From: Patellaria atrata CBS 101060
Lineage: Eukaryota
Direction: 5' to 3'
DNA: 64,000 nt
NCBI GenBank assembly: GCA_010093705.1
Contig: MU006090.1
Span: 1,763,817 to 1,827,816, forward strand
The position numbers and the translations under genes were made by a program. Below, in pieces: positions 5,934 to 43,471 of this stretch (position 1 is its first letter; each line of letters starts with the position of its first letter). The notes under the pieces were generated by a model, which saw only the letters and a program-made list of their open reading frames with translations, was not told the DNA's origin and searched no databases.

Positions 5934-8900
5934 TTAGGTTTCCTCCCGATCATCTTCCTCCTTCTCGGCATCCACCCAAATTAAAACGCCGCGTTTCTCT
6001 GCTCTACAACCATCCGCAGCCAAAACCTTCAATACTTGTCTGAAGTATCGATCTACCACTCTCAGCTGAGGGTTAATCCATTTCCCGTGTATCAATGGGA
6101 GCACATTGAATCTGACTGTTTCTCTGCTCATCGGTAGCACGTGTAAAGCTTTTAATCGTGGCCCGCTCATCGCGAATTCTTCTGATCCCTCCATGGTCAT
6201 GTCAAACGTAAGAAAATGGATCGTTGGGTTTTCAAACGTATATGCGAGGTGAATAACGGACGGCACCGAAGATGAAGGCGCCGAAGTTCGGGTGGTAAGA
6301 AGCACGCGCGGCTCACTGCTGGGAACGATCTGGCGGGGTACGAGAAGTGTGCTAACAATACTCGGGGTAGCAGTCCCTGATTCAACGACCTTTCGTCTCC
6401 ATTTCACCTGAAGATCGAGATTGAGACCAAGTGGGCGACGCTCTTCCAGGTTGAGCTTTCGAACCTCTATATCAAACTCACGTTCTTGGAGGTCTCTTGG
6501 TGATACTTCGGCTTCCGGAATCGGTGCGTCGTCCTTCTTGATCTTGCAATTAGCACCTCCATCTATCGCGTGTAAGATCAAGTCCGCCTCCTCTAAGATG
6601 ATGGTCTCATCCGCAAAAGACATAATGCGAGCTGTCAATATCCAACTCTGTGCAATTCCAACAGCGTTGCCATCCTCACCATTTTGACCTTGGTTGACGC
6701 TGAAATAACTCGGCCAGGGATCCGGATGTACCCGTGGCCTGAACTCGTAATTTGCCTCGAAGAGATCCAGTATTACCAGCTCAACGGAAAGTGTCTTGGA
6801 TACGGGTGTATCCGGATCGCTGAGGAGATGATAGAGCACCTTGATCTCTAATACAAAGTCCGATGGTTGAGACGTAGCTGTGAATGATATCGACGCAGTT
6901 CGAGTTTCCCCAGCAGCCAATCGTCCAACAGTATGCTGAGGAAGTTCCGTCATTGATAAATTGCTAGTGGTGGACTCGGATCTGTTTTGCTTTGACGGTT
7001 GATGTGTGCCTGAAACCCAAGTAAACGTAGGGATAAGTTTGGAACGACCAACGACCTGGAGCTCCAATATGGCTTCTGTCTCCTCGTCTTCATGATTTGC
7101 GACTTCGACATCCAGGGTGATAGGTTCATCGCAGAAGTAGTCAGCTCGTAAATTGGGAAGGCTAAGGTCTACCTTGGGTGGCTTTGGATGTATTATAGTT
7201 GGACTGTCTTTCTCCCTCCCGAGCTGTTTGGTTTTTATGCCTCCGCGACTCTGGAACCACCAGGTAGGCCATCTCTCCACAATCTCGAAAGTAGAACTAG
7301 AGGTAAGTTTAAATCTCTCTCTTTCTATGGTTATTATACTTCCCACTGGTCGCACCTCACCAGCTTCTCGAAATATAATGGGAAATGACAACACCTTTAT
7401 TTGACCAGGGTAAAAGGTGAGGTCTGTCAATCCTGAGAAGCTTAGTTTTGAGCCCCCAGAGTTTGCTGTGGTCCCCTCAGCTATCTTCATATTAACAATG
7501 ATTGACTCACGTGGAGTTCCTAATGCCGTATGCGTTACGGAAGGACCATGTGAAATGGTAATCATATTGAGACATCCTTCGAACTGCACAGCAATATGAG
7601 ACAGTGTAACGGGTGCGGAATTCTTGTGAGCACTGGACCTAATGACCAATTGGGTCTTCATAGCGTTTGAAACGTGACCTTCACTGTCTTCGAAAGTACA
7701 AGATACTGCTACTACTTTTTGTTAGCCTTATTTATTTAATCTTAGTGTTAGTATAGATACATGATGCATTCGTCCATTTATAACGTTAGAAACAGAAAGA
7801 AGTACTTACGAAAAGAGGAAGTATCTGCGGCATTCAGATCAACCTCTATCTTGGTACCTAATCCATCATCTCCATAAGTTATGTCGTCAAGACAGTGATC
7901 GAGATCATGCTTCTGATCGGTATCTGTGCTAAGAGCTAAATGCATTAGAATCCTGGCTTAGAAGACGTTGAAGGTCTTACCATTATTGTACAACTCCCAG
8001 CAGGTAGCAAGCACCAACTCTGCTTCACGAAGATGCACGGCACACGTGTGTAACGCCGAAGCGACTTGATAAACCAAAGACCACCAGTGTTCTGCACGCC
8101 AGTTCATTCCTTCCCAAAGGGGTTTTAGAAAAGCAACAGCCTCAGCGAATCGCCCAGCTCGTACGAGTTCGGTACCGATATCGAGCTGGAGTTTTGATAC
8201 CCGACGATGCTGACTTCTACTGTAGAACTCTCCTACCGCTTGCTCCAATGTCTCAACGATTTCACGCGTATGGTCGTAGCCATCCACACCCGGTAATGCT
8301 GCCTCGATATGTGGTTGGGGAACGAGGTATGTGTCATAAGTGCCATATCGATGGGCTACTTGTGTCGCTGGTGACATTCCAGGAGGCACACGATCTTCCT
8401 CTGGTATGTCTTCAGCAAGAGTACGCCTTGCAAAAGAATGTCTTGCAGATAGCTCAAACCAATATCCGGCATGGTGGAGAAGATGCCACGGTGGTAGTCT
8501 TTCGCCAACAGGTATAGCCTTTTCAGCTGGAACGTAAAAAGTTGGCGCTTGACCTCCAATTACATCGCCTGCTCTATTGAAATCTTTGATGTTGAAACTT
8601 GGTAGATTTGCTCTCTGAATAGTTTCGGCCATTATTTTAGACCACCTTGCCTCCCAAGCTTGCCAACCATAATTACTGGACCCTTTGCCCCGTCGATCGA
8701 TTAAATCTTGCATCCTATCTCTATAGTCAACCCAAGCTTGCACCGCAGACGTGGGCAGATTGTTCCATAATAGACAACGTAAAATACGCAAAGCTATAGT
8801 ATCAGTGAGCAGACGGGTATCATCCCAACGCGGTGACCAGCTAGCTATTGTCTCAAAGACTCCGTCCGAGTTGAGAAGCCCATCCAGGGCAATACTATAA

Positions 8901-9948
8901 TGTCTACACGCTGCATCCATTTCTTGACGAAACTCAGCGAAAACTCCCAGTTTGTACTCATATCGCACTGCCCAGGCCTGGCTCGTTAGAGTTTGAGATG
9001 TTCCTCTTGTAGGTGGAACTGTGGGTGGGGGAGCGTATCCTCGACTCTTCTTCCGCCTAGAATGCTTCGTGAGATCCCGATAATATTCGATGCACCCTGG
9101 TTGGAGCGCAGAAAGCACAGTGCTGACAAAAGTAGATAGCTCTACTCGAGACGTATTTGGGGGGAGAAGAAATAATCCCGTCTTTGGATCTAGGCCTGTA
9201 CCTCGACGAATAGTATTAAGTCGTTCGTCAAGATCAGGCGCCTGCAAGACAGTTTTATCGCTCAGAACGATTACAACTAAGCGTGTTTTGTATTCCGAGG
9301 CCTGTAAAACCTGCTTTATCTTGGATATTTCATTTTTGAGCTGATTGTCATGCAAACTATTCTTCGAGGGATCAGATTTTAGCTCATAAAATGCTATGAG
9401 CGCCGATGGAACGAAGTATTGGTGCTTTGCGAGCCAGAAAGGGGTCATAATCCCGTCCGGGAAAGATGGAGAACCGGGAGAAAGGGGCGAAATAGGTGAG
9501 TGCAATATCCATGAAGCAGGGATCGTTGTAAGGGGACTTTGAGTCACTGGAAACTCATCGGGAGTTCTTGCAGGGGGAGCAGCTTTGCGCGGAGGGAGTG
9601 TAAAGCTCTAAAGTCCTATGGTATCAGCGGACATGTATGTGGATTTCCCATTCTGGGCTTCATCAGACCTACCCTCCCAACTGCCCTGAATTTGAAACCG
9701 ATGAGCTCTGTTCTACTCTTGCTCGACCAAGGTGCATTTGTGCCGTCAGCTTTCAGGAAATCTCGTAGTAACTCCTGAGCTCGTTCTCCTTTCAAGTTTG
9801 GCCATTCTGAATTGATGAAAGCCCCGCGATCCTGTAGAGGACTGTGGGATCGTGTAGATGAGTATTGACTATCCTCATGAGTACTTAAACCATAGAGCAC
9901 AATCAACGGAAGATTGTGCGCAACATAATCTGCAGGATACGCATCCAT
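5934..9948 (-). CDS. TRAPPC11: TRAPP complex subunit TRAPPC11 homolog (Foie gras / Gryzun domains), 4 exons
   Basis: N-terminus MDAYPADYVAHNLPLIVL; YYRDLTKHSRRKK, RYEYKLGVFAEFRQEMDAA and a Gryzun-type C-terminus. ORFs 9616-9948, 7958-9547 and 5934-7661 are joined by canonical introns. Confidence 0.88.
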
Positions 9949-10403
9949 CGCTGGGGGTGAGAACGGAAGGGACTACAAGAAACATAAAAGGTCCTCAGTC
10001 ATATCTTCATGTTCCGCGCGGATGACGTGCGCGTGGACTAAAAGCTAGTGAATCGAAAATATAGTATCATTGAACATTGAGTCTTAATTGCATGTTGAAG
10101 ATGCTTACTATCACTTCGTTGACTAGAACCGCGAAAGTCAGATAGATATTGATGGAGATTAGATCATCAAAGCTACAAGAAAGTCCCTTGGGCTTGGCGC
10201 GGTAAAATAGCTCCGCCATACAATCTAGCATTCAGCCCTCAACTTACTCTTTTGATACCACCTTGGTTTTCTCCTTGAAATTTGTCCTAGTTCTATGATT
10301 ATATGAGTACTTGAATCTTCTCGTACATATTTGAACATTTTCAAACAGGATTCACCTTGAAACCCCTACAAAGATATCAAGTGTTCAACGCGGTCCGCCC
10401 ACC

Positions 10404-12016
10404 ATGGCCGCGACTCAGGCTTTGATCGCGGAGACGATCACGGCGATGAAAAGAGCAGTACAACGGGCTGACGAATGTGAGTCACTAATAAACTTCCGCT
10501 TTCTTAGAACTGCAGTTACTGACTATACTGGTCCTCTGATAGCTTCCGAGTCTGACGATCAGATATACTACCCAACAAATCGAGCGAACAAGCTTAAACG
10601 TAAGGCGAGATATGTTCAGCAAGGACGACTGGACAATGGCGCGGGCCCTAAATCGTATAAAAGAGTGTGTTATGCTAAATTTCTTCTGAAATTGGGCTTG
10701 CTAAACCGTTGGGTAGAAAATTGGACATGCCAACTACGAGCGTTACATCATTCACCGCAACCCTCCGCGATACGACGTCGATGGCGAGATAGTCGACTTG
10801 GACGACAACGATATAGACTCGGATGCGCTTAGCGAACAGGACGAGAATCCATGGGCTGGGATCAAGATTGAAAGTTTGTCTCCCTGTCCCTCCAGATCAC
10901 GGCTCCTCGAACCTTAAACTAATATCTTGAAACTATATAGACACGCTAGCTCCACTCACATCCTTAACGCAGCTTGCTACGCATCCCAGCTGGTCTGCCC
11001 CATATCAGTCTCGAGCACTCAAGACCATGATCGAGGAGTGTCGCGAAAATTTGTATCGGGAACAGAATGCTTTGTGGCGAGCGAAGGAACTGCTGACAAA
11101 ATTCCGAGGGGATGAAACCTGGGCGCCGGTCGGAATATTTGCAACCGAGTATGATGAGCTCTTATTGCGAAATACTATTCCCGCTAGAGCAACTGCATCA
11201 TCAGCAACTCAGTCCATTCAAAATGGCGAACAACAACTACTAGAGTGGGACCCTTCAAGATCAGGAGCAGACGGGCTGAGAACGCCACCGCACAACTTGA
11301 ACCGAGCGAATAGGGACGTGGACGGACTAGTAATGGAGGATGTACAGAATTCACAGCTATCCGCGGGTACATCTCCTCAGATAACGTCCAACGGCGTGCC
11401 GGTCAGTAGTGAGGGTATGAAAATAGAAAACCCCACTACCAATGGAGAAAGCCACAATGGTATGACAGACTCTATCGGAGTACATAGTCATAATCTAGAT
11501 GCTCCACCCAGAGATAACCTTCCTTCACCACCAGAAGAAGATGACACCAGCTCTCAGGCGAACTCCCACCGCATGACGACCAGACGGCGCGCCCGTGGAC
11601 CCTCCAACCCTGCTTCAACCACTTCTTCGCCTGCCCCCACCTCTGAAACCGTACCCTCCGTTCACCCTTTCTTCGCCTTCCCTACACATCTCCTCACGGA
11701 TCGCTCTCTTGGGCTCCAACCACACATCGCGGATCAAATGCGGCAGATCCTTCTTCTTTATGTACAGAAACAGGACGAAGTGGTGAGAGGCGCGAAGGAA
11801 CTGTTAGATGGGCTACTGGCGGCGGACAGGAAGAGAAAGGAGGTGCTGAAATGGTCAAAAGCGGAAGCACATGTGGGGACGATGAAGGACGGCGAAGATT
11901 GGTATGATAAGGAAGAATGGGGTCTGACGGAGGACTTGGTGAAGGGTAAGGAGGAGGAGGAAGAGGTCGAGGTACCAGGAAAGAAGACGAGACAGAGGAG
12001 ACGCGCGGGGGATTAA
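10404..12016 (+). CDS. RXT2: Rpd3L histone deacetylase complex subunit Rxt2-like, 4 exons
   Basis: RXT2_N-like TNRANKLKRKARYVQQGRL, ENPWAGIKIE, LLTKFRGDETW and C-terminal EDWYDKEEWGL. Confidence 0.8.
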
Positions 12017-12206
12017 GATCGAAATGTTTTGCATAGATTGAATGAAATATACCCACTCTTGTCTATGCTTGTTTGCCTTGACTAGGTTTCCTCCTTTAAC
12101 AAATTCTATCTTGTTCAGCTTACCCGAGTACAAAAAGGAATAAAGCTGTTATGATCCGTTAACCTTGCGATGTGCTGCGCGACCGTATGAGAAAGAAGAA
12201 ATAAAT

Positions 12207-12400
12207 AAAAAAAGACAAATTGCAAAACAATTAGCCCCGTAGGACTCCTTGAACCCCCAGGACGGGATTTTTGCTGCCGCTGCTCCATTGACCTGAGGTT
12301 TACCGATAAACCCGCCCGGAGGGAATCGAACCGACGACGTTTCGAGGGGGAAGGGAGATCGTAGTCAGACTGCCTGACCGCTCTGCCATTGTTAGTTGAA
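12207..12400 (-). ncRNA. Candidate Pol III-transcribed structured ncRNA with a degenerate tRNA-like head (element E1)
   Basis: On the minus strand: TATA-like CTTTATATT (12428-12420), A box TGGCAGAGCGG (12388-12378), perfect B box GGTTCGATTCC (12332-12322), 3' hairpin (12278-12214) and T7 run (12213-12207). The acceptor and T stems do not pair, so this is not a functional tRNA. Confidence 0.65.
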
Positions 12401-12598
12401 ACAGGACTTCTCCTTGGCGAATATAAAGACGAGGGGGGCGAGGGGCGGAGAGCTTAGAAGGAATATCACGTGTAGTGTTTGTAAATGTTGAAGAGACTAG
12501 TTGGGACATGGAAGGAGGGAGGACCTCTCTACTACGAATCTGGGTCACATGATATATTGATGCTATATATAATACAAAGACTGAGTAGGTAAGACATC

Positions 12599-14721
12599 TC
12601 ATAACTGCTCCAACAGGTCCCTAATCCTTCCCGCCAGCTCACTAATCACGATATCCTCCTTTACCCCTAATCTTCGACATTGCAACTCTACAATCTTCTC
12701 CTCCTTCCAGCGCCGCCCTAACAGCACAATGACCGGATACCCGACCAAATCTGCGTCGATCAACTTCCATCCCAGCTCCTTTTTCCTATCATCTAGCACC
12801 ACATCTGCCACCGTCCCTAGTAGCCCATCGTACACACTCTCCGTATCCTTATCTTTAATGTCCCTCCCACTGAACACAACAGCCTCAAATGGCGCTACAA
12901 CCCTAGGCCAATTGAGACCTTTCCCGTCCGCTAGCACAGCCGCAATGGCTCCAATGAGCCGGGAGACTCCGATGCCGTGACAGCCCATGTGGACAGGGGT
13001 GGGACCGGTTGGAGTTTCGACAACGCACTTAAGAGGGACGGAGTAGCGGGTGCCGAGGTGGAAGGTGTGGCCGACTTCGATGGCTTTGTGCACGGTGAGG
13101 GTGCCGGTAAGACAGCGAGGACAGAGGTCACCGGTGCGGATGCGGGTTAGGTCAAGGGGAGAATTGGTCGTGGGGTGGGTGGTAATGATTTGGTCGGCTG
13201 GCGACGGGCCAGAGGGGTTGAATGGTAGGACGGGGAGTAAGCGATAATCGTAAATGGCGATGCGGTCGCCGAAGGACACGTCGGTAGCGCGTTGCTGTTG
13301 CCAGGCGACCTTCTTGAATTGGGAGGCCCAGAGACCGAACGCACCGGTCTCGATTGAGGTGTCAAGTTCGGGAAGGATTTCTTTGAGGAGCCGGATGTTT
13401 AGATCTTGAGCCTTACCTAGATCTCCCTTCGAGAGAGGGTCTCTCTGAATGGTAGGGAAGAGCTCTTGATTTAATTGGTGGGGATAATGGACCTCAACTA
13501 AAGTCCTTCTATCTGTAGTAATTCCTTCCCAGATAAGCTCATTCGGACTATTAGACCCGTCCCGAACTCGCTGCTGATCCAGGCTCTTTTGTCCTTTCTC
13601 TTCGTTTGCCACATAATTGCATGAGTTGCATACACAAACATTATCTTCCCCTTTTAGGGAGGAAAAGTGATACTCATGGCTGAGCTTACCGCCCATATCT
13701 CCTGATTCAGCCTCAGCTACGAGGTAGGGGATTTTGAGTTCGTCCAAAATCGACACATATGCATTACATACGTCTCGATAGGTAGAGAGTGCTGCCTCAT
13801 GCTCGGAATCAAATGTATAAAGGTCTTTCATAAGGAATTCCTTAGCTCGCAAGAGCCCTTCTCTGGGACGCTTTTCATCTCGATACTTTCTGGCTGTTTA
13901 AAATTAGGGTCTCTAAAGGAGTAATCGGTCTGGAAAACATACATATTTGATATAAACGTAATGGTAGATCCTTGTATGAGCTTAAGATCCTTCCGACGAG
14001 GGTTGTAATCTCTTCTTCATGTGTGGGGGAGAGGAAGAAGCCAGATTCCTTTCGGTCTCTGACACGAAGGAACTATTATACTCAATATTCCATCTCTAGG
14101 ATCATTGAACAAGGCACTTACCTCTGAGTTAGCACTATACCTACCACTCTTCAGCCATAAATCCCTCGTTGTTATTGATGACAATGAAACTTTGGATGCC
14201 CCTTTCGAAGATATGAGTACTAGAACTGAACATAAAAGATTCTATTTACCAAGTCCAGTCATATGTTTATCAATCAATCTTTCTAACTTGTTTTGAACTC
14301 TTTGGCCAAGGGGAAGTAAATGAAAGACCCCAGAGTGAGCCTAGATAGTTAAGCTAATGAAAATGAACGAGGGGAAATTTCACTTCACACCTGTCGTAGA
14401 AACCCAGACCTTAGTAGAAGGGTATGGGAGTCATCTATACGAAGAAGTTAGATCCTTTTATCTTTTGAATGGGAATAGAGGATGGACCTTCAGAGCCGCT
14501 TCCAGCTGTACCCTGTGTGGGAGCCCAGAATGTGGAGAGGCGATTTCTCCCATCTATCTTATTATAATCAGAGATTATATAATGGAAATACTTCCGTTAA
14601 TAAAACTCACGTGAAGTGTTCTGACATTTTGATACTGGAAGGTTATACCGCTTTGAGATGGTTTAAGGGAACGCAAAGAAGTATTTCGTAACAGCAGCCG
14701 GAATGCAGAATGATGGGACAT
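12599..14721 (-). CDS. AIM10: Mitochondrial prolyl-tRNA synthetase (bacterial-type), multi-exon
   Basis: Basic presequence [33 protein letters not shown], motif 2 [40 protein letters not shown], motif 3 [10 protein letters not shown], and an anticodon-binding domain. Confidence 0.9.
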
Positions 14722-15010
14722 AAGGAAAGACTAGAAGAGAAAGGAGAAAACGTGTCTCAATTCATTTGATGGGAATTAGATTTTAAAATCCAGGGATGAT
14801 GAAAGATCAAGAGCATATCGAAGTAGTAGATGGTCCATGTCCTCTCCCGAGGATTTCCCGCGCGGCCTTCAATACAACGAGAATATTTTGAACTTAGTAA
14901 ATCACCATTCATCCGCCATTGAATTGTAGCTCAACGTACGTCTCCCAAAGGCTCAATTGAGGGCATTCTACTGACATGATACCTAGTGCTACAAACACTC
15001 ACAACCCACA

Positions 15011-16060
15011 ATGCCATCACCACGATTACGCTTCCAACCACTCACACTCCACCTCCCCATTTCTCCCTCACTTTCCCTATACCAATGCCGCAACGCATCC
15101 ATAGCGACAATACCCGCCCCATCCGACTCACACATCTCCCACCCCGTCTCCCCAGTCCTCCGCTACCCAGCCAACCAACCCCCCTCCCACAAACCCCCCC
15201 AATTCCGCAAATCTCAGCTCCACCGCCAATACACCTCCCTCCTACGCTCAACCCCCCTCCTCCTAATTTTCCAACACAACAACCTCAAATCCAACGAATG
15301 GATGTCCATCCGCCGCGAACTCTCCGCCGCCCTCACAACCGTCGATCAAGCCGCTCTAGCAACAGACCCCACAACCGCGGCCCTACACGCGAACAACATA
15401 AAATTGCAGATCGTGCAAACCGGCATCCTCGCCGCGGCGCTCCGCGTCGTCGAGTTCTTCGACCCATCCTCTATCCCCCAAACAACTGAAAATAAAGTAC
15501 GCACCGCGACGGATCCGGCGATCAACACGTCCCGCTCCCTACCCGACGCCCGTCCCCTCCCCGACTCTCCCGCCTTCACCCACGCCCTCTCCCGCACCGC
15601 GCACCGCCTCGCCCGCGCCTCAGGCCGCACCCATGGCCTCGAACCGCTCCTCTCAGGTCCCCTGGCCCTTCTGACCTTCCCCGCCGTATCGCCCGCGCAC
15701 CTCGCAGCCGCTCTGTCCATCCTCGCGCCCTCGCCTGCCTTTCCGGCGCCGAGGAGGAAGGCGAATCCGGCATACCACGAACCGGCTGTGCAGCAGGGGG
15801 TGCAGAAGCTGATGTTGCTGGGCGCCCGGGTGGAGGGACAGGCGTTCGATGGGGAGGAGGTGAGATGGGTGGGCGGGATTGAGGGCGGGATTGGGGGACT
15901 TAGGGTGAGACTGGTGCATATGTTGCAGGGGGTTGGGGGTGGGGTTACCAATGTGTTGGAGGGGGCGGGACGGAGTTTGTATTTTGCTGTTGAGGGGAGA
16001 CGGGGGATGTTGGAGGAGGAGGAGAAGAAGGAGAAGGGTGGGGAGGAGAAAGTGGGATAG
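15011..16060 (+). CDS. MRPL11: Mitochondrial large-subunit ribosomal protein uL10m
   Basis: RKSQLHRQYTSLLRSTPLLLIFQHNNLKSNEW...LLGARVEG; mitochondrial presequence-like N-terminus; intronless. Confidence 0.8.
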   Translation: MPSPRLRFQPLTLHLPISPSLSLYQCRNASIATIPAPSDSHISHPVSPVLRYPANQPPSHKPPQFRKSQLHRQYTSLLRSTPLLLIFQHNNLKSNEWMSIRRELSAALTTVDQAALATDPTTAALHANNIKLQIVQTGILAAALRVVEFFDPSSIPQTTENKVRTATDPAINTSRSLPDARPLPDSPAFTHALSRTAHRLARASGRTHGLEPLLSGPLALLTFPAVSPAHLAAALSILAPSPAFPAPRRKANPAYHEPAVQQGVQKLMLLGARVEGQAFDGEEVRWVGGIEGGIGGLRVRLVHMLQGVGGGVTNVLEGAGRSLYFAVEGRRGMLEEEEKKEKGGEEKVG

Positions 16061-34883: not shown

Positions 34884-35081
34884 TTTTCGATACTATACCG
34901 TCGGGTACACCGTTGTGGAAGCTGCAGGCCGTACAGTCAAATCGTTCCTGCCGTACAAATAGTCTAACGCCAATCCGCTTTCGACCTGTACCATACCTTA
35001 GCTAAAGAATACTTTACTGCCCTCATACCTTCCATTCTAGGTAGGGAGCAGTACAGTCCTACCTTAGCTCTATCCCCGATC

Positions 35082-36131
35082 ATGGCACCCAAGCTCCTCC
35101 CTCGCGCTTCCTCCGATGAGCCAACTTCGACGGCAAGATTGACCGGGAGAACAAGCACAACCTCAACAGAGGAACCCTCAACCATAGCCACAACCGATGA
35201 AGCACCCACCGAGCCCTCCCCTGGAGCCTCAACCGCAGCTTCAACCACAGACCTAACCTCAACCATAACCTCAACATCTCTTTCAACCTCCGCATCTTTC
35301 TCTACCCTTACATCTACAATCTCTTCAATCTCCGCCTCCGCCTCCGCATCCGCCACCGAAACCTCCAAGCCCTCGGACCGCTTCTCCCCCGCTGGAATCG
35401 CAGGAATAATTATCTCCGGTCTCCTCGGCCTCGCCTTCCTACTGGGAATCGCCCTCATCGTCCTCCGAAAGCGCCATCACAGACTCAAGAAAAAACGCCA
35501 CAGCACCGCCAGCACCGCCTTACTAGTCCCCCACGACCGCCGCAGCAGCATGCAAGAAAGCCGGAACAGCAGAGAGAGCGTGTCCATGTATTCTCGGAGC
35601 AGAGGAAGGGCAGGAAGCGACGTCGTGTACATCCGAGCCGAGCACGACGAGGACGCAGAAGAGGGAGAAAGGGGGCGGGATGGATTAGTAAGCGGTGCAG
35701 CTAGGGGCAGAAGTAGGAGTAGGAGCATCAGTATCGCCGATGCGCTGGTTCCCGTGACCGTGCATCCACCGCTGCCGGAGGTCGATACGTCGTACCGCAG
35801 CCCCAATAATCACCACGGCAACCCAAGCATCAACACCCCGGTTGCGGACTCGCCTAGTTCGGTCTACAGTGTCCATGTTTCGCGGAGTAATACTGTGGCG
35901 GGTACGGCGTATGTGGATGCCGAGGCGAGACCGGAGATCGCGGAACGCCAGAGCACGGCGGAGTCGGTGGCGTCGTCAAGGAGGAGTAGGGCTAATAGTC
36001 TAAGCTTTAATAGGTATTATTCGAGTGGGAGCGGGAGTGGGACGGTGGTGCGTGAGCCGGTGCCCGCTCTGGTAAGGCCGGAGGAGGTGCCGTTGGTGAG
36101 GGTTAGTGATTCGGATGAGGTGGGGAAGTAG
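35082..36131 (+). CDS. Ser/Thr-rich single-pass membrane protein (Mid2-like architecture)
   Basis: About 90-aa S/T-rich ectodomain, TM SPAGIAGIIISGLLGLAFLLGIALIVL, basic stop-transfer RKRHHRLKKKR, Ser/Arg-rich tail. No obvious signal peptide. Confidence 0.75.
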   Translation: MAPKLLPRASSDEPTSTARLTGRTSTTSTEEPSTIATTDEAPTEPSPGASTAASTTDLTSTITSTSLSTSASFSTLTSTISSISASASASATETSKPSDRFSPAGIAGIIISGLLGLAFLLGIALIVLRKRHHRLKKKRHSTASTALLVPHDRRSSMQESRNSRESVSMYSRSRGRAGSDVVYIRAEHDEDAEEGERGRDGLVSGAARGRSRSRSISIADALVPVTVHPPLPEVDTSYRSPNNHHGNPSINTPVADSPSSVYSVHVSRSNTVAGTAYVDAEARPEIAERQSTAESVASSRRSRANSLSFNRYYSSGSGSGTVVREPVPALVRPEEVPLVRVSDSDEVGK

Positions 36132-40103: not shown

Positions 40104-43100
40104 TTACTTCTTGAGCGGGTTCTCCGCGTTATACTTGCGGATCATCTCGTCTTCCTGAGCCTTGATGTTGCGAAAGCGCTTGCGGTTCTTCTCAACCCAC
40201 TTGCCCTTATCCTCTTTGCTCATGTTAGCAGGATCTTCTTCCTTCTTGGTCTTGAACTTGTTTGCCACCGTACTGAGGGTTCCCTTGGCCTTCGAAGGTG
40301 AGCTGCGGCTCTTCTGTGGCGAGCCATTGAAATCGCCCTTGATTAGGGTGCTGGGAGACTTTGTTGGTGAGGTCTGGAGCGAGTTCTCGCGAAACGTGAC
40401 TGGACTGATCATTTCGGATAGATCGTCCATGGCACCATCCATGGCACTATCCAAGCAACGCCGAGGAGACAGTCTCGAGAAGGAAAATGATCCCTGAGCC
40501 TTAATGGTCTCAATCGGCGTCAACTGTGGACGCTCACTCCTAAGCCCTGGGGACATGACGTTTTCTTCCTGTGGTTGGTTAGATGTAACAGCGGAGCCAT
40601 ATGGACTCGTCAAAGCGTTGCTGCTTGTGGTCTGCGTCTGAGTTGGCCAAGTTCGGTTTGCAAGGGGAGACTGCGGCGCATTAGGTGGTGCCCAGATATT
40701 AGGATCTACTCCTGGAAGCCTGGCAAAGGGAGTTCCCGGACTGACCTTGACTTGACTAGAGTTGGATCCATTCGATGAGCCCGTACGCCCACGTCCTTGT
40801 AGTGGAGAGACATTCGTCATGTTTGCCAATGGAGCAGATGTCCTGTTGGAAGACGGTGTTGCCCGGTTTGCGCCGAGGACGGATCGAAGATGTTCAAGCT
40901 GGCGTTCGTTCTTGAGCAGGCGATCAGCTTGGGCGTAACCGTGGGAGTAGACTTGACCACGGCTTGTGGGCGCAAGCTCTCGAATTGCATCCCTCCAACC
41001 GTTAAACCAGACTGCTTTCTGACCATCCGTGAGGTTATCAACGTCAGCTACATCAAGACTAAAGATACCATTCGGGCTGCTGGATCCATCCAGATCGAAA
41101 GGGCCGGGGCGTGTAGGTGTCTCCGGAACGGTTGAAACGCTATTCGGGGAATTTTGACGGCTTAGAGCACGAGCTTCTTGCGCTGGTGCGGAAGTGAATT
41201 CATTTTGGCGGCCGGGGAAGAAATCGTCAGTGTTAACACTGGAACGACTATTCTCATGCTTCTGGCCTGGACTGCCACCCTTGCTCTCTTCCACATGATT
41301 ACCACCCGGAGGTACCTCGCTCTGACCACTCGATACAGAGGCTGACACAAGACGATCACCAGCTGACTGATCCGAATCCACAGATCGACCAGGTTTGAAA
41401 GTAGGACTCGTAGGATTTAGGTTTGAGCGATGTTGCATGCTTGTTTCCTGCGAGGGCTGCTTGATGTCAACAGCGTGTGAACGTCGGTTTACCTTAGCAA
41501 CGCTTGGTGATTGATTCGACTGGGAGGTATTGGATCCCGCTCCCACAGTTTGAGCGGCTCCACTGGACGCTGATGGACCAGGCTGAACATATTGATATTC
41601 ATTGAATGTGGGAACGGTATCGCGTATGGGATAACCAAATGGCGCTGGTACACGTTGAAAGGACGGAGCTGGGAGCTCATAAACACGGCCTAGGCTCGGC
41701 TCCGGCAAATTGTTGAAACCAAGAGCTTGGGATGTGTAATTCGAAAAACGTTGATACGCTGACATTGGAGGGCAGTAAGGAGGGGGAACGTTATCTGGTT
41801 GGAGTCCATAATTTCCGCTACCGACAAAAGTTTCTCTCCCCTCGCGAGGACGTACGAGCGCAGATTGTACGTACATATCCATCAGCGCTGGTGGTTGCCC
41901 TCGGAATGGTATGTAATTACCACTTGACCCTGGCTGAAGTCTAGGATTAATTGATGTCGCAGGTGGATGGTTCTGTTGGAGGGGAGCACCCGGAGTGATA
42001 TCACCATCACCCCGATTCATGCGGGCTGTCTCGAATTTGCGCATAGCTTCATCGACCCGCTGCATCTCCTTCTCCAAGTTAGCTTTGTGTTGGCGAATGA
42101 GGTCGCGGCGCGTGACATAAACCCTCTTGATATCGACACGTTCGTTGGTCTCCGACCGAGAGATCCCTTGTCTCAACACATGTTGCTGCTCTAGAGCCTG
42201 GAGCTCACGACCGAGCTTCTCATATTCTTCCTGTAGTTGACTAATCTGTACACGGGGCGGCATGTGCATGAGACTATCGAATAATTCTGACACTGGTCGG
42301 ATAACAGATGCTGGCCAAAGAACGTACTTGTGCGTCCTCACGTTTCGATTATGCGAATCTGAGGCGTGTGACGGATGCCTCGACGTCGGGAAGTCTGGAT
42401 ACCGAAATATCATGTCGTCGTCGTCAGGCGGGACCTGGAATAGTAAATTGGTGGGTCGCACTGCAGGCTGAATTGAGGTTGAATGGCTCCATGGCTGATC
42501 TCCATGGAGGTGGTCTTGCCACCTTGCGATCGACAAAAGAGTTTCATCGTCGTGATCGATGGGATGCTGATTATCTGCAAGAAGTGGTTCACCCAGTGAA
42601 AGTTCTGGAAGTGGAATCTCTGATGGTTCCATTGTGAAGGGAGCTCGAGTTGTCGGGACGAGCTGTGCGGAAAGCTGATCTGGAGGTTCCCTAGATGGAG
42701 CCTTGCTGAAAGGAGTGATTGTGGGCACGACAAGACCACCTGCAGTGACGCGCACACCTGGGGGTGAACCGTGTCGCTTCACCAGAGTCTCCGCGCAGTG
42801 CTTCTTTACGGATGGTGTCGGCGAGGGCTTCTTGACGTTCGATGTGTCCTGTGTATTGGACTGAACGGACTTCTGAGGATTCTGAATTGCTGTGGTCAAG
42901 AGAGCTTGGTTGTCGCGCTGGGTCAAAGATTCCGAAGAGACGCGTGAAGACTTCCTTGCGAGGATTTCTGAAATATCAAAGCCGTCAGTCAACCCTCTGG
43001 GAACGAGGGTAACATGGGCGCTATTGATAGCGGATGCAATTATACGTTGACGGATAGGGGCGGAATCAATGCGAAAGATGCCGTGAGATGAAGCTGCGTA

Positions 43101-43471
43101 TAAGGCGTATAAGTGAAGGCGCAAATGTGTGGTTAACAGTGAGAACAGCAAACGTAAATAAACAAAAGTGTGCAGATAATAGAGTCGCGTCTATCTCACC
43201 GCCTAGGCAATGAAGCGGGTGAAAAGGGGATCGCTGGGTAGAATGCATGTGATATTAAAGTAGTAGTTCAATAAAGACAGATACAAACGCAATGCTTACC
43301 TTCAAGAGCTTCCTTGTTAACAGACACATCCTTGTTCAATATGTCTTGCGGTCCACTGTTTTCATCCTTCTTCAACTTGAGAAGCTGGGTAGGAGTATAC
43401 TTGCGGAATTTCTTTCCCATATCGGATCGCAGCCCTTCGAGACTTTGTGCTGCCCGTATTTGAGACGTCAT
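40104..43471 (-). CDS. Large intrinsically disordered protein (~1000 aa) with eIF4E-binding-like and PAM2-like motifs and a coiled coil
   Basis: Exon 43471-43300 spliced (GTAAGC...CTGAC...CAG, intron 42968-43299) in frame to the long exon 42967-40104. Contains RKYTPTQLLKLK, RVTAGGLVVP and SNLNPTSPTFKP. A further upstream exon (donor at 43549) is possible. Confidence 0.8.

Follow-up and report, generated by a model that had tools for sequence, protein, structure and literature searches.

A SINE-like member of a dispersed repeat family, with a tRNA-type Pol III promoter head, between convergent RXT2-like and prolyl-tRNA synthetase genes of Patellaria atrata

The yeast genes RPR1 and SNR52 have Pol III promoters of the leader type, are single-copy and specify RNase P RNA and a C/D snoRNA, respectively. 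Among the fungal SINEs, Mg-SINE of Magnaporthe, Foxy of Fusarium and SINE2-1_BG of Blumeria have A-rich or LINE-like 3' ends. In the portions of the AfuSINE2 report drawn on here, these elements are presented as tRNA-derived and as occurring in tens to ~160 copies per genome, and the well-characterised fungal SINEs are put at fewer than ten families (PMC5063351). The same portions describe the AfuSINE2 elements of Aspergillus fumigatus as 140–493 bp long, with tRNA-related heads that do not fold into a cloverleaf (PMC5063351). SINE tails may consist of poly(A), poly(T) or another simple sequence, and the programs SINE-Finder and AnnoSINE accept poly(T)-tailed SINEs in plants, according to the sections consulted of a further source (PMC8825457). 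The rodent 4.5SH and 4.5SI genes, in the part of their description used here, carry A and B boxes together with a TATA-like box at −31/−24 (PMC10137851).

Here we describe an element of the Patellaria atrata genome that shares features with each of these systems. It occupies positions 12207–12401 on the minus strand of the 64-kb stretch of DNA that was analysed (the window) and is almost certainly a member of a dispersed repeat family of this genome. The repeat is likely to be a SINE-like unit of ~190 bp, composed of a tRNA-type internal Pol III promoter head, a tRNA-unrelated body and a T-rich tail, and the element is probably a retroposed SINE.

The element sits in a 582-nt gap between two convergent genes, which a previous reading of the sequence alone (the sequence-only reading) had named as RXT2 and ProRS, and their Pfam domains bear these identities out. 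A Pfam scan places an RXT2_N domain at 10931–12013 on the plus strand, in a gene that ends at 12016, and the class II synthetase core and anticodon-binding domain of a prolyl-tRNA synthetase (ProRS) at 12602–13897 on the minus strand, followed by a stop at 12599–12601. The Atlas clusters nearest to ProRS are proline-tRNA ligases of Ascomycota. The element lies on the same strand as ProRS, ~200 nt past its stop. In between is an AU-rich stretch; given what fungal 3'-end signals commonly look like, the ProRS mRNA probably terminates there, short of the element.

The window contains 19 ORFs of at least 250 aa, 16 of which were scanned against Pfam; the three left out share sequence with other ORFs, either on the opposite strand or in a different frame. 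The Pfam matches of the scanned ORFs all belong to ordinary cellular families, with no reverse transcriptase among the 16. Two adjacent long ORFs at 5934–9607 (minus strand) match Gryzun (E 3.7e-187) and Foie-gras_1 (E 6.8e-86), and probably represent exons of a single, TRAPPC11-like trafficking gene. The ORFs at 40104–43190 (minus strand, 1028 aa) and 34968–36131 (plus strand, 387 aa) stay without a Pfam match at E up to 1e-5.

On the minus strand, the locus carries a TATA-like TTTATATT (12427–12420), a leader motif CAACTAAC (12391–12398) that adjoins the A box upstream and has a similar form in other copies, an A box TGGCAGAGCGG (12388–12378, by pattern match), a B box GGTTCGATTCC (12332–12322, 0 mismatches) and a T7 run (12213–12207) that forms a Pol III terminator-like tail; the TATA-like element and the T7 run were identified by reading the sequence. 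All the minus-strand features listed in the sequence-only reading are present, including the B box 45 nt after the A box and the two hairpins described below. The repeat unit itself (~190 nt, 12207–12401) consists of a short leader, the A box, the B box, the body and the T-rich tail. The TATA-like TTTATATT stands outside it, ~20–25 nt upstream of its 5' boundary and within the single-copy flank (the bin at 12412–12445 is at single-copy depth). The CAACTAAC leader is the probable start region of the predicted Pol III transcript.

The A and B boxes, as given by the familiar consensus forms, do not exceed chance when taken singly: the B box (up to 1 mismatch) has 2 matches in the window versus 2.64 expected, and the A-box pattern has 3 versus 2.53 expected. 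One ordered A/B pair with a spacing of 25–60 nt is present in the 64-kb window, and none of 200 dinucleotide-preserving shuffles contains one, so the promoter-like architecture is real and not a product of chance; it would descend from a gene of the tRNA type. Exactly 45 nt lie between the two boxes (56 nt from start to start), and this spacing and the box sequences would fit a tRNA with a long variable arm.

The sequence-only reading had also described the tRNA stems as decayed, and our searches agree. ARAGORN at default settings found 0 tRNA genes in the window and, when applied to the element, none with introns allowed and none at thresholds of 90% or 80%; the two calls that it makes on the element at 70% are below any usable threshold and meaningless. 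By this program the cloverleaf, with its acceptor, D, anticodon and T arms, is absent from the element, and the Rfam tRNA model does not match the element even at E up to 10. At gathering thresholds Rfam 15 gave 0 matches in the whole window and, with E up to 10 in 11900–12800, nothing that overlaps 12207–12428. Apart from the A/B-box unit, these 64 kb of gene-dense fungal DNA yielded no Pol III-like feature.

The description of the predicted transcript as a structured RNA holds locally only. The small hairpin GGUUUA-UCGG-UAAACC (12312–12297, minus strand), with 6 bp and a UCGG loop, is a real palindrome (−4.3 kcal/mol, z −3.57, 0/200 shuffles as good), and the interrupted 65-nt 3' hairpin (12278–12214, minus strand) is marginally better than its shuffles (−20.5 kcal/mol, z −1.65, 9/200). 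On the plus strand the latter stretch reaches only −10.6 kcal/mol (z +0.37, 128/200 shuffles as good), and this difference supports the argument, made earlier from G-U pairs, that the minus strand is the one to be read. By contrast, the whole 194 nt fold no better than shuffles on the minus strand (−58.1 kcal/mol, z −0.42, 61/200 as good) or on the plus strand (−53.4 kcal/mol, z −0.34, 68/200), nor does the 114-nt 3' half on the minus strand (−31.9 kcal/mol, z −0.41, 68/200). A 14-nt A-box-like direct repeat (12277–12290 and 12378–12391, 101 nt apart, 79% identity) prompted the idea that the element derives from a dimer of two tRNAs, which was rejected on finding that 61 of 1000 shuffles match the local alignment of the two halves. 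The copy of this word at 12277–12290 falls inside the most repeated core.

Evidence that the element is repeated comes from public sequencing runs. Only two runs, X1 and X2, match 9000–16000 (1.00 and 0.99 of the words sampled). They come from one sample and together count as one data set. Neither is on record as RNA; both are probably DNA, and the window itself probably derives from them. The summed word depth is 312.3 (X1) and 442.2 (X2) in the left flank and 289.9 and 374 in the right flank. Within the element it climbs from 1808 and 2298 at 12208–12241, through 8023 and 8604 at 12242–12275, to a peak of 26472 and 28405 at 12276–12309, and declines again to 8719 and 11239 at 12310–12343, 4755 and 7117 at 12344–12377, and 2030 and 3115 at 12378–12411. 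The gain is confined to 12208–12411 and amounts to ~6-fold at both ends, 15–28-fold in the head and the 3' hairpin, and 64–85-fold in the core; since summed word depth does not equal copy number, we speak of tens of copies only. By blastn, no further copy was found inside the 64-kb window.

The contigs of both runs were aligned to 11800–12800 at 80% likeness, which yielded 58 contig pieces in X1 and 65 in X2, with the ends of the stretch covered by 2 per run. A further 25 (X1) and 27 (X2) lay only partly on the stretch, and the share of aligned contig material that runs into unlike sequence was 0.18 and 0.22. Our account of individual copies covers the 16 of 125 contig pieces and 12 of 43 loose ends that were listed. 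At least six X1 contigs besides the window's own, 626–28243 nt in length, are at the single-copy level with depths of 289–328, and align over 108–161 nt; among the other X1 contigs listed, mismatches and gaps make up ~6–20% of the aligned length and the flanks are unrelated. Single-copy depth combined with diverged alignments identifies these contigs as separate loci of the same genome. The window's own contigs, which show 0 other letters, stop at 12289 and start again at 12306 (X1) or 12360 (X2), a break inside the core that is typical of assemblers at repeats. Depth is also raised at 11834–11969 in X2 (up to 1121) and, in X1, at 11936–11969 only (up to 483); this region encodes the acidic, Glu-rich C-terminus of the RXT2-like protein, and the signal looks like low-complexity cross-matching rather than a repeat element.

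The most repeated part of the unit is a core of ~30 nt under the depth peak (12276–12309, minus strand). No variant falls at 12276–12305 among the 40 of 57 variant rows listed, and promoter and hairpin positions vary among the listed copies. The B box reads GGTTCGAATCC in most other copies and GGTTCGATTCC in this one; at 12325 another letter is found in 11 contigs (X1) and 9 contigs (X2), which account for over half of the depth there. On the 5' side, the listed copies stop matching at 12386–12390, with one reaching 12401. The loose letters beyond 12388 and 12390 (minus strand) again form a CAAYTAAC-like word adjoining the A box, which indicates that the unit begins ~10 nt upstream of the A box, where we infer that Pol III would be expected to start. 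On the 3' side, copies stop matching at 12217 and continue as a longer T-run on the minus strand (2 loose ends per run); at 12217, the letters of the loose end are rich in A on the plus strand, hence in T on the minus strand. The unit thus coincides with the predicted Pol III primary transcript, from its start region to the T-run, and this match favours spread via RNA: had DNA segments been duplicated, upstream flanking sequence would have been copied with them.

We next turn to relatives of the locus. Eighty metagenome loci (802,596 nt) were retrieved via the ProRS exon, and 7 of them were compared with the window proteins by tblastn. Across these 80 loci around ProRS relatives, no blastn match to the element was better than E 0.52 and no A/B pair was found; ARAGORN, applied to 7 of the 80, detected 0 tRNAs. 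Two loci, L001 and L003, contain the same four genes as the window in the same order and orientation (the Foie-gras-domain ORF, RXT2, ProRS and the ORF at 14987–16060), at ~50% identity for ProRS and 65% for the Foie-gras-domain gene. Their ProRS–RXT2 interval has no element homologue, no A box and no B box, and the conservation in relatives to which the sequence-only reading had looked is absent from both. Measured from the last aligned residue of ProRS to that of RXT2, the interval is 410–411 nt in L001 and L003 versus 588 nt in the window; the difference of 177–178 nt is close to the unit length, a likeness that is no more than suggestive at such an evolutionary distance. In a third locus, L006, ProRS and RXT2 are on the same strand and ~4.6 kb apart. 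The absence in L001 and L003 and the arrangement of L006 indicate that the element is no old, conserved feature of the ProRS–RXT2 interval.

Wider searches with parts of the element gave 0 matches for a 22-mer of the core in metagenome_contigs and 0 for a 20-mer of the core in viral_contigs. Two 20-mer matches in genome_contigs were set aside, as they lie on bacterial MAG contigs and extend over 21–22 nt only, with ~1 match expected by chance. A 60-aa open frame through the element, searched as a protein for spurious ORF calls on copies, returned no candidate. Three short words of the element retrieved one unrelated paper only from the full-text literature, and four of its motifs are absent from one text supplement of PMC5063351.

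By description, and as far as the portions of their report used here go, the AfuSINE2 elements are the closest known fungal tRNA-related SINEs in size and head decay (PMC5063351). They too belong to an ascomycete and combine an A/B-box head with a tRNA-unrelated extension and gene-rich insertion sites, and in one AfuSINE2 family the 11-mer GGTTCGATTCC recurs as an additional B' box (PMC5063351). The same portions report target-site duplications of 4–14 bp, low copy numbers and, for one AfuSINE2, an end in ACT repeats shared with a LINE, whereas the present element has no duplication above chance, tens of copies and a T-rich tail (PMC5063351). Mg-SINE, Foxy and SINE2-1_BG, likewise compared by description, are reported there to be larger than the present unit (472 bp for Mg-SINE; PMC5063351). 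Plant poly(T) SINEs, in the sections consulted, have a similar layout (A box, 25–50 nt, B box, 20–500 nt, poly(T)), and the 45 nt between the present boxes fall within that range, which is a likeness of layout only (PMC8825457). The same sections treat target-site duplications as essential in plant SINEs, whereas the present copy shows none above chance (PMC8825457).

The genes of the rodent 4.5SI and 4.5SH RNAs are non-tRNA small RNA genes that derive from tRNA or 7SL and, like the element, have internal A and B boxes, an upstream TATA-like box and a T-run terminator; in the part of the source used here their products are defined, expressed RNAs of mouse-like rodents, whereas transcription of the present family is a prediction (PMC10137851). 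RPR1 and SNR52 also place a tRNA-like A/B-box leader upstream of a non-tRNA RNA, but they are single-copy genes with conserved products, whereas the present unit is multi-copy and matches nothing in Rfam.

We interpret the element as a SINE-like unit on the basis of its observed motifs, its dispersed multi-copy nature, its boundaries and its absence from two syntenic relatives. As in SINEs, it is a short (~190 bp), non-coding unit with dispersed copies, A and B boxes and a simple-sequence 3' tail, and the option of a tRNA-headed SINE, offered among others by the sequence-only reading, fits a dispersed multi-copy repeat with an A/B head. That reading had held that hundreds of copies with target-site duplications would mark an ordinary SINE; the copies are indeed many, though tens rather than hundreds, and the duplications are missing. 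For this copy the best exact flank match is 6 nt, with 137 of 300 shuffles as good, and the best with one mismatch is 8 nt, with 174 of 300 as good, so that no target-site duplication stands above chance; the copy is probably old.

In the route of transcription, helper-dependent copying and RNA-mediated spread that we infer, TFIIIC would bind the A and B boxes and position TFIIIB upstream, and Pol III would initiate in the CAACTAAC leader and terminate in the T-run. A reverse transcriptase supplied in trans would copy the transcripts back into DNA at new sites, and the present copy would have been inserted where the convergent RXT2-like and ProRS genes face each other with their 3' ends. Two features besides the missing duplication speak against a SINE. 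The tail is T-rich in the sense of the promoter, so a LINE route that depends on poly(A) has no obvious application, and a TATA-like box at the right distance in the unique flank would be a coincidence under random insertion.

The papers searched contain no precedent for a T-tailed SINE in fungi. It is conceivable, though we give it little weight, that the unit equals the full Pol III primary transcript with its oligo-U end and represents a T-tailed SINE type as yet undescribed in fungi, or that its core is a domesticated small RNA. The former would imply retroposition without a poly(A) tail, for example by a U-rich end that folds back and primes on the internal A5 run, and the latter would make the ~30-nt core the mark of a small RNA with a cellular role.

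Several other origins were weighed against a retroposed SINE. The copies could be functional Pol III genes, scattered over the genome, that all specify a new ~180-nt small RNA and each have a terminator and an upstream promoter of their own. They would then compare with the dispersed gene families of 5S RNA and tRNA, or with the 4.5S RNA genes of rodents, and not with a mobile element. We regard this as unlikely. It would account for the T-run on every listed copy seen at its 3' end, for the TATA-like box at the right distance in the unique flank, for a ~30-nt core far more widely shared than the rest and for the failure to find a target-site duplication, and the rodent genes, in the part of their description used here, set a precedent for A and B boxes combined with a TATA-like box (PMC10137851). 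It sits poorly with listed copies that are ~6–20% diverged and vary at promoter and hairpin positions, with a whole-RNA fold no better than shuffles, with absence from the syntenic site of L001 and L003 and from the 80 loci, and with the lack of an Rfam family.

A repeat that spread at the DNA level, be it a fragment of a larger transposon, a passenger of MITE or Helitron type, or a truncated LINE tail with a tRNA-derived piece, would need neither a target-site duplication nor an A-rich tail, and a core much more abundant than the head and tail could belong to a commoner element. However, there are 0 inverted-repeat pairs in 12100–12500, neither strand of the element ends in a 3' A-run, and the depth peaks centrally, whereas 5'-truncated LINE tails pile up toward one end. 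The boundaries also coincide with those of the predicted Pol III transcript, and the flanks are single copy within ~200 bp, all of which makes an origin of this kind quite improbable. Least credible, with only a very slight chance of being right, is a unique, locus-specific Pol III gene for a milRNA precursor or a new ncRNA between RXT2 and ProRS. This copy has its A and B boxes, TATA-like box and T7 run intact and the local hairpins favour the minus strand, yet multi-copy status in the same genome contradicts uniqueness, the syntenic interval of L001 and L003 is empty and the overall fold is at chance level. The same results (a dispersed repeat, absent in two relatives and weakly folded overall) leave without support the proposal that this locus retained a promoter for the sake of expressing one specific hairpin RNA.

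The sequence has the looks of a purpose-built Pol III gene flanked by housekeeping genes, but it belongs to a genome-wide repeat and should be masked or annotated as SINE-like and not as a new ncRNA locus. A ~190-bp family with tens of copies adds one to the few characterised fungal SINEs, and in view of the T-rich tail one may ask by what route such units are copied. Lying between convergent genes, the intact A/B pair could also bind TFIIIC, and one may speculate that this site, together with an AATAAA-type signal, could affect 3'-end formation of the neighbouring genes.

Read on the plus strand, the antisense of the T-rich tail (12200–12214) contains such an AATAAA-type signal followed by an A-run. 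Speculatively, the tail of the element might supply the poly(A) signal of the RXT2-like gene, ~190 nt past its stop; a SINE-supplied poly(A) signal is reportedly the theme of a paper on a dog SINE. Beyond ProRS, the ORF at 14987–16060 (plus strand, 357 aa) has no Pfam match at E up to 1e-5 and is found at 57–58% identity beside ProRS in L001 and L003. These two loci come from different records and are nearly identical across their ProRS–RXT2 interval (11270–11720 in their own coordinates), with a handful of substitutions and a single 1-nt indel between them; it looks as if one fungal species, or closely related strains, had been sampled twice.
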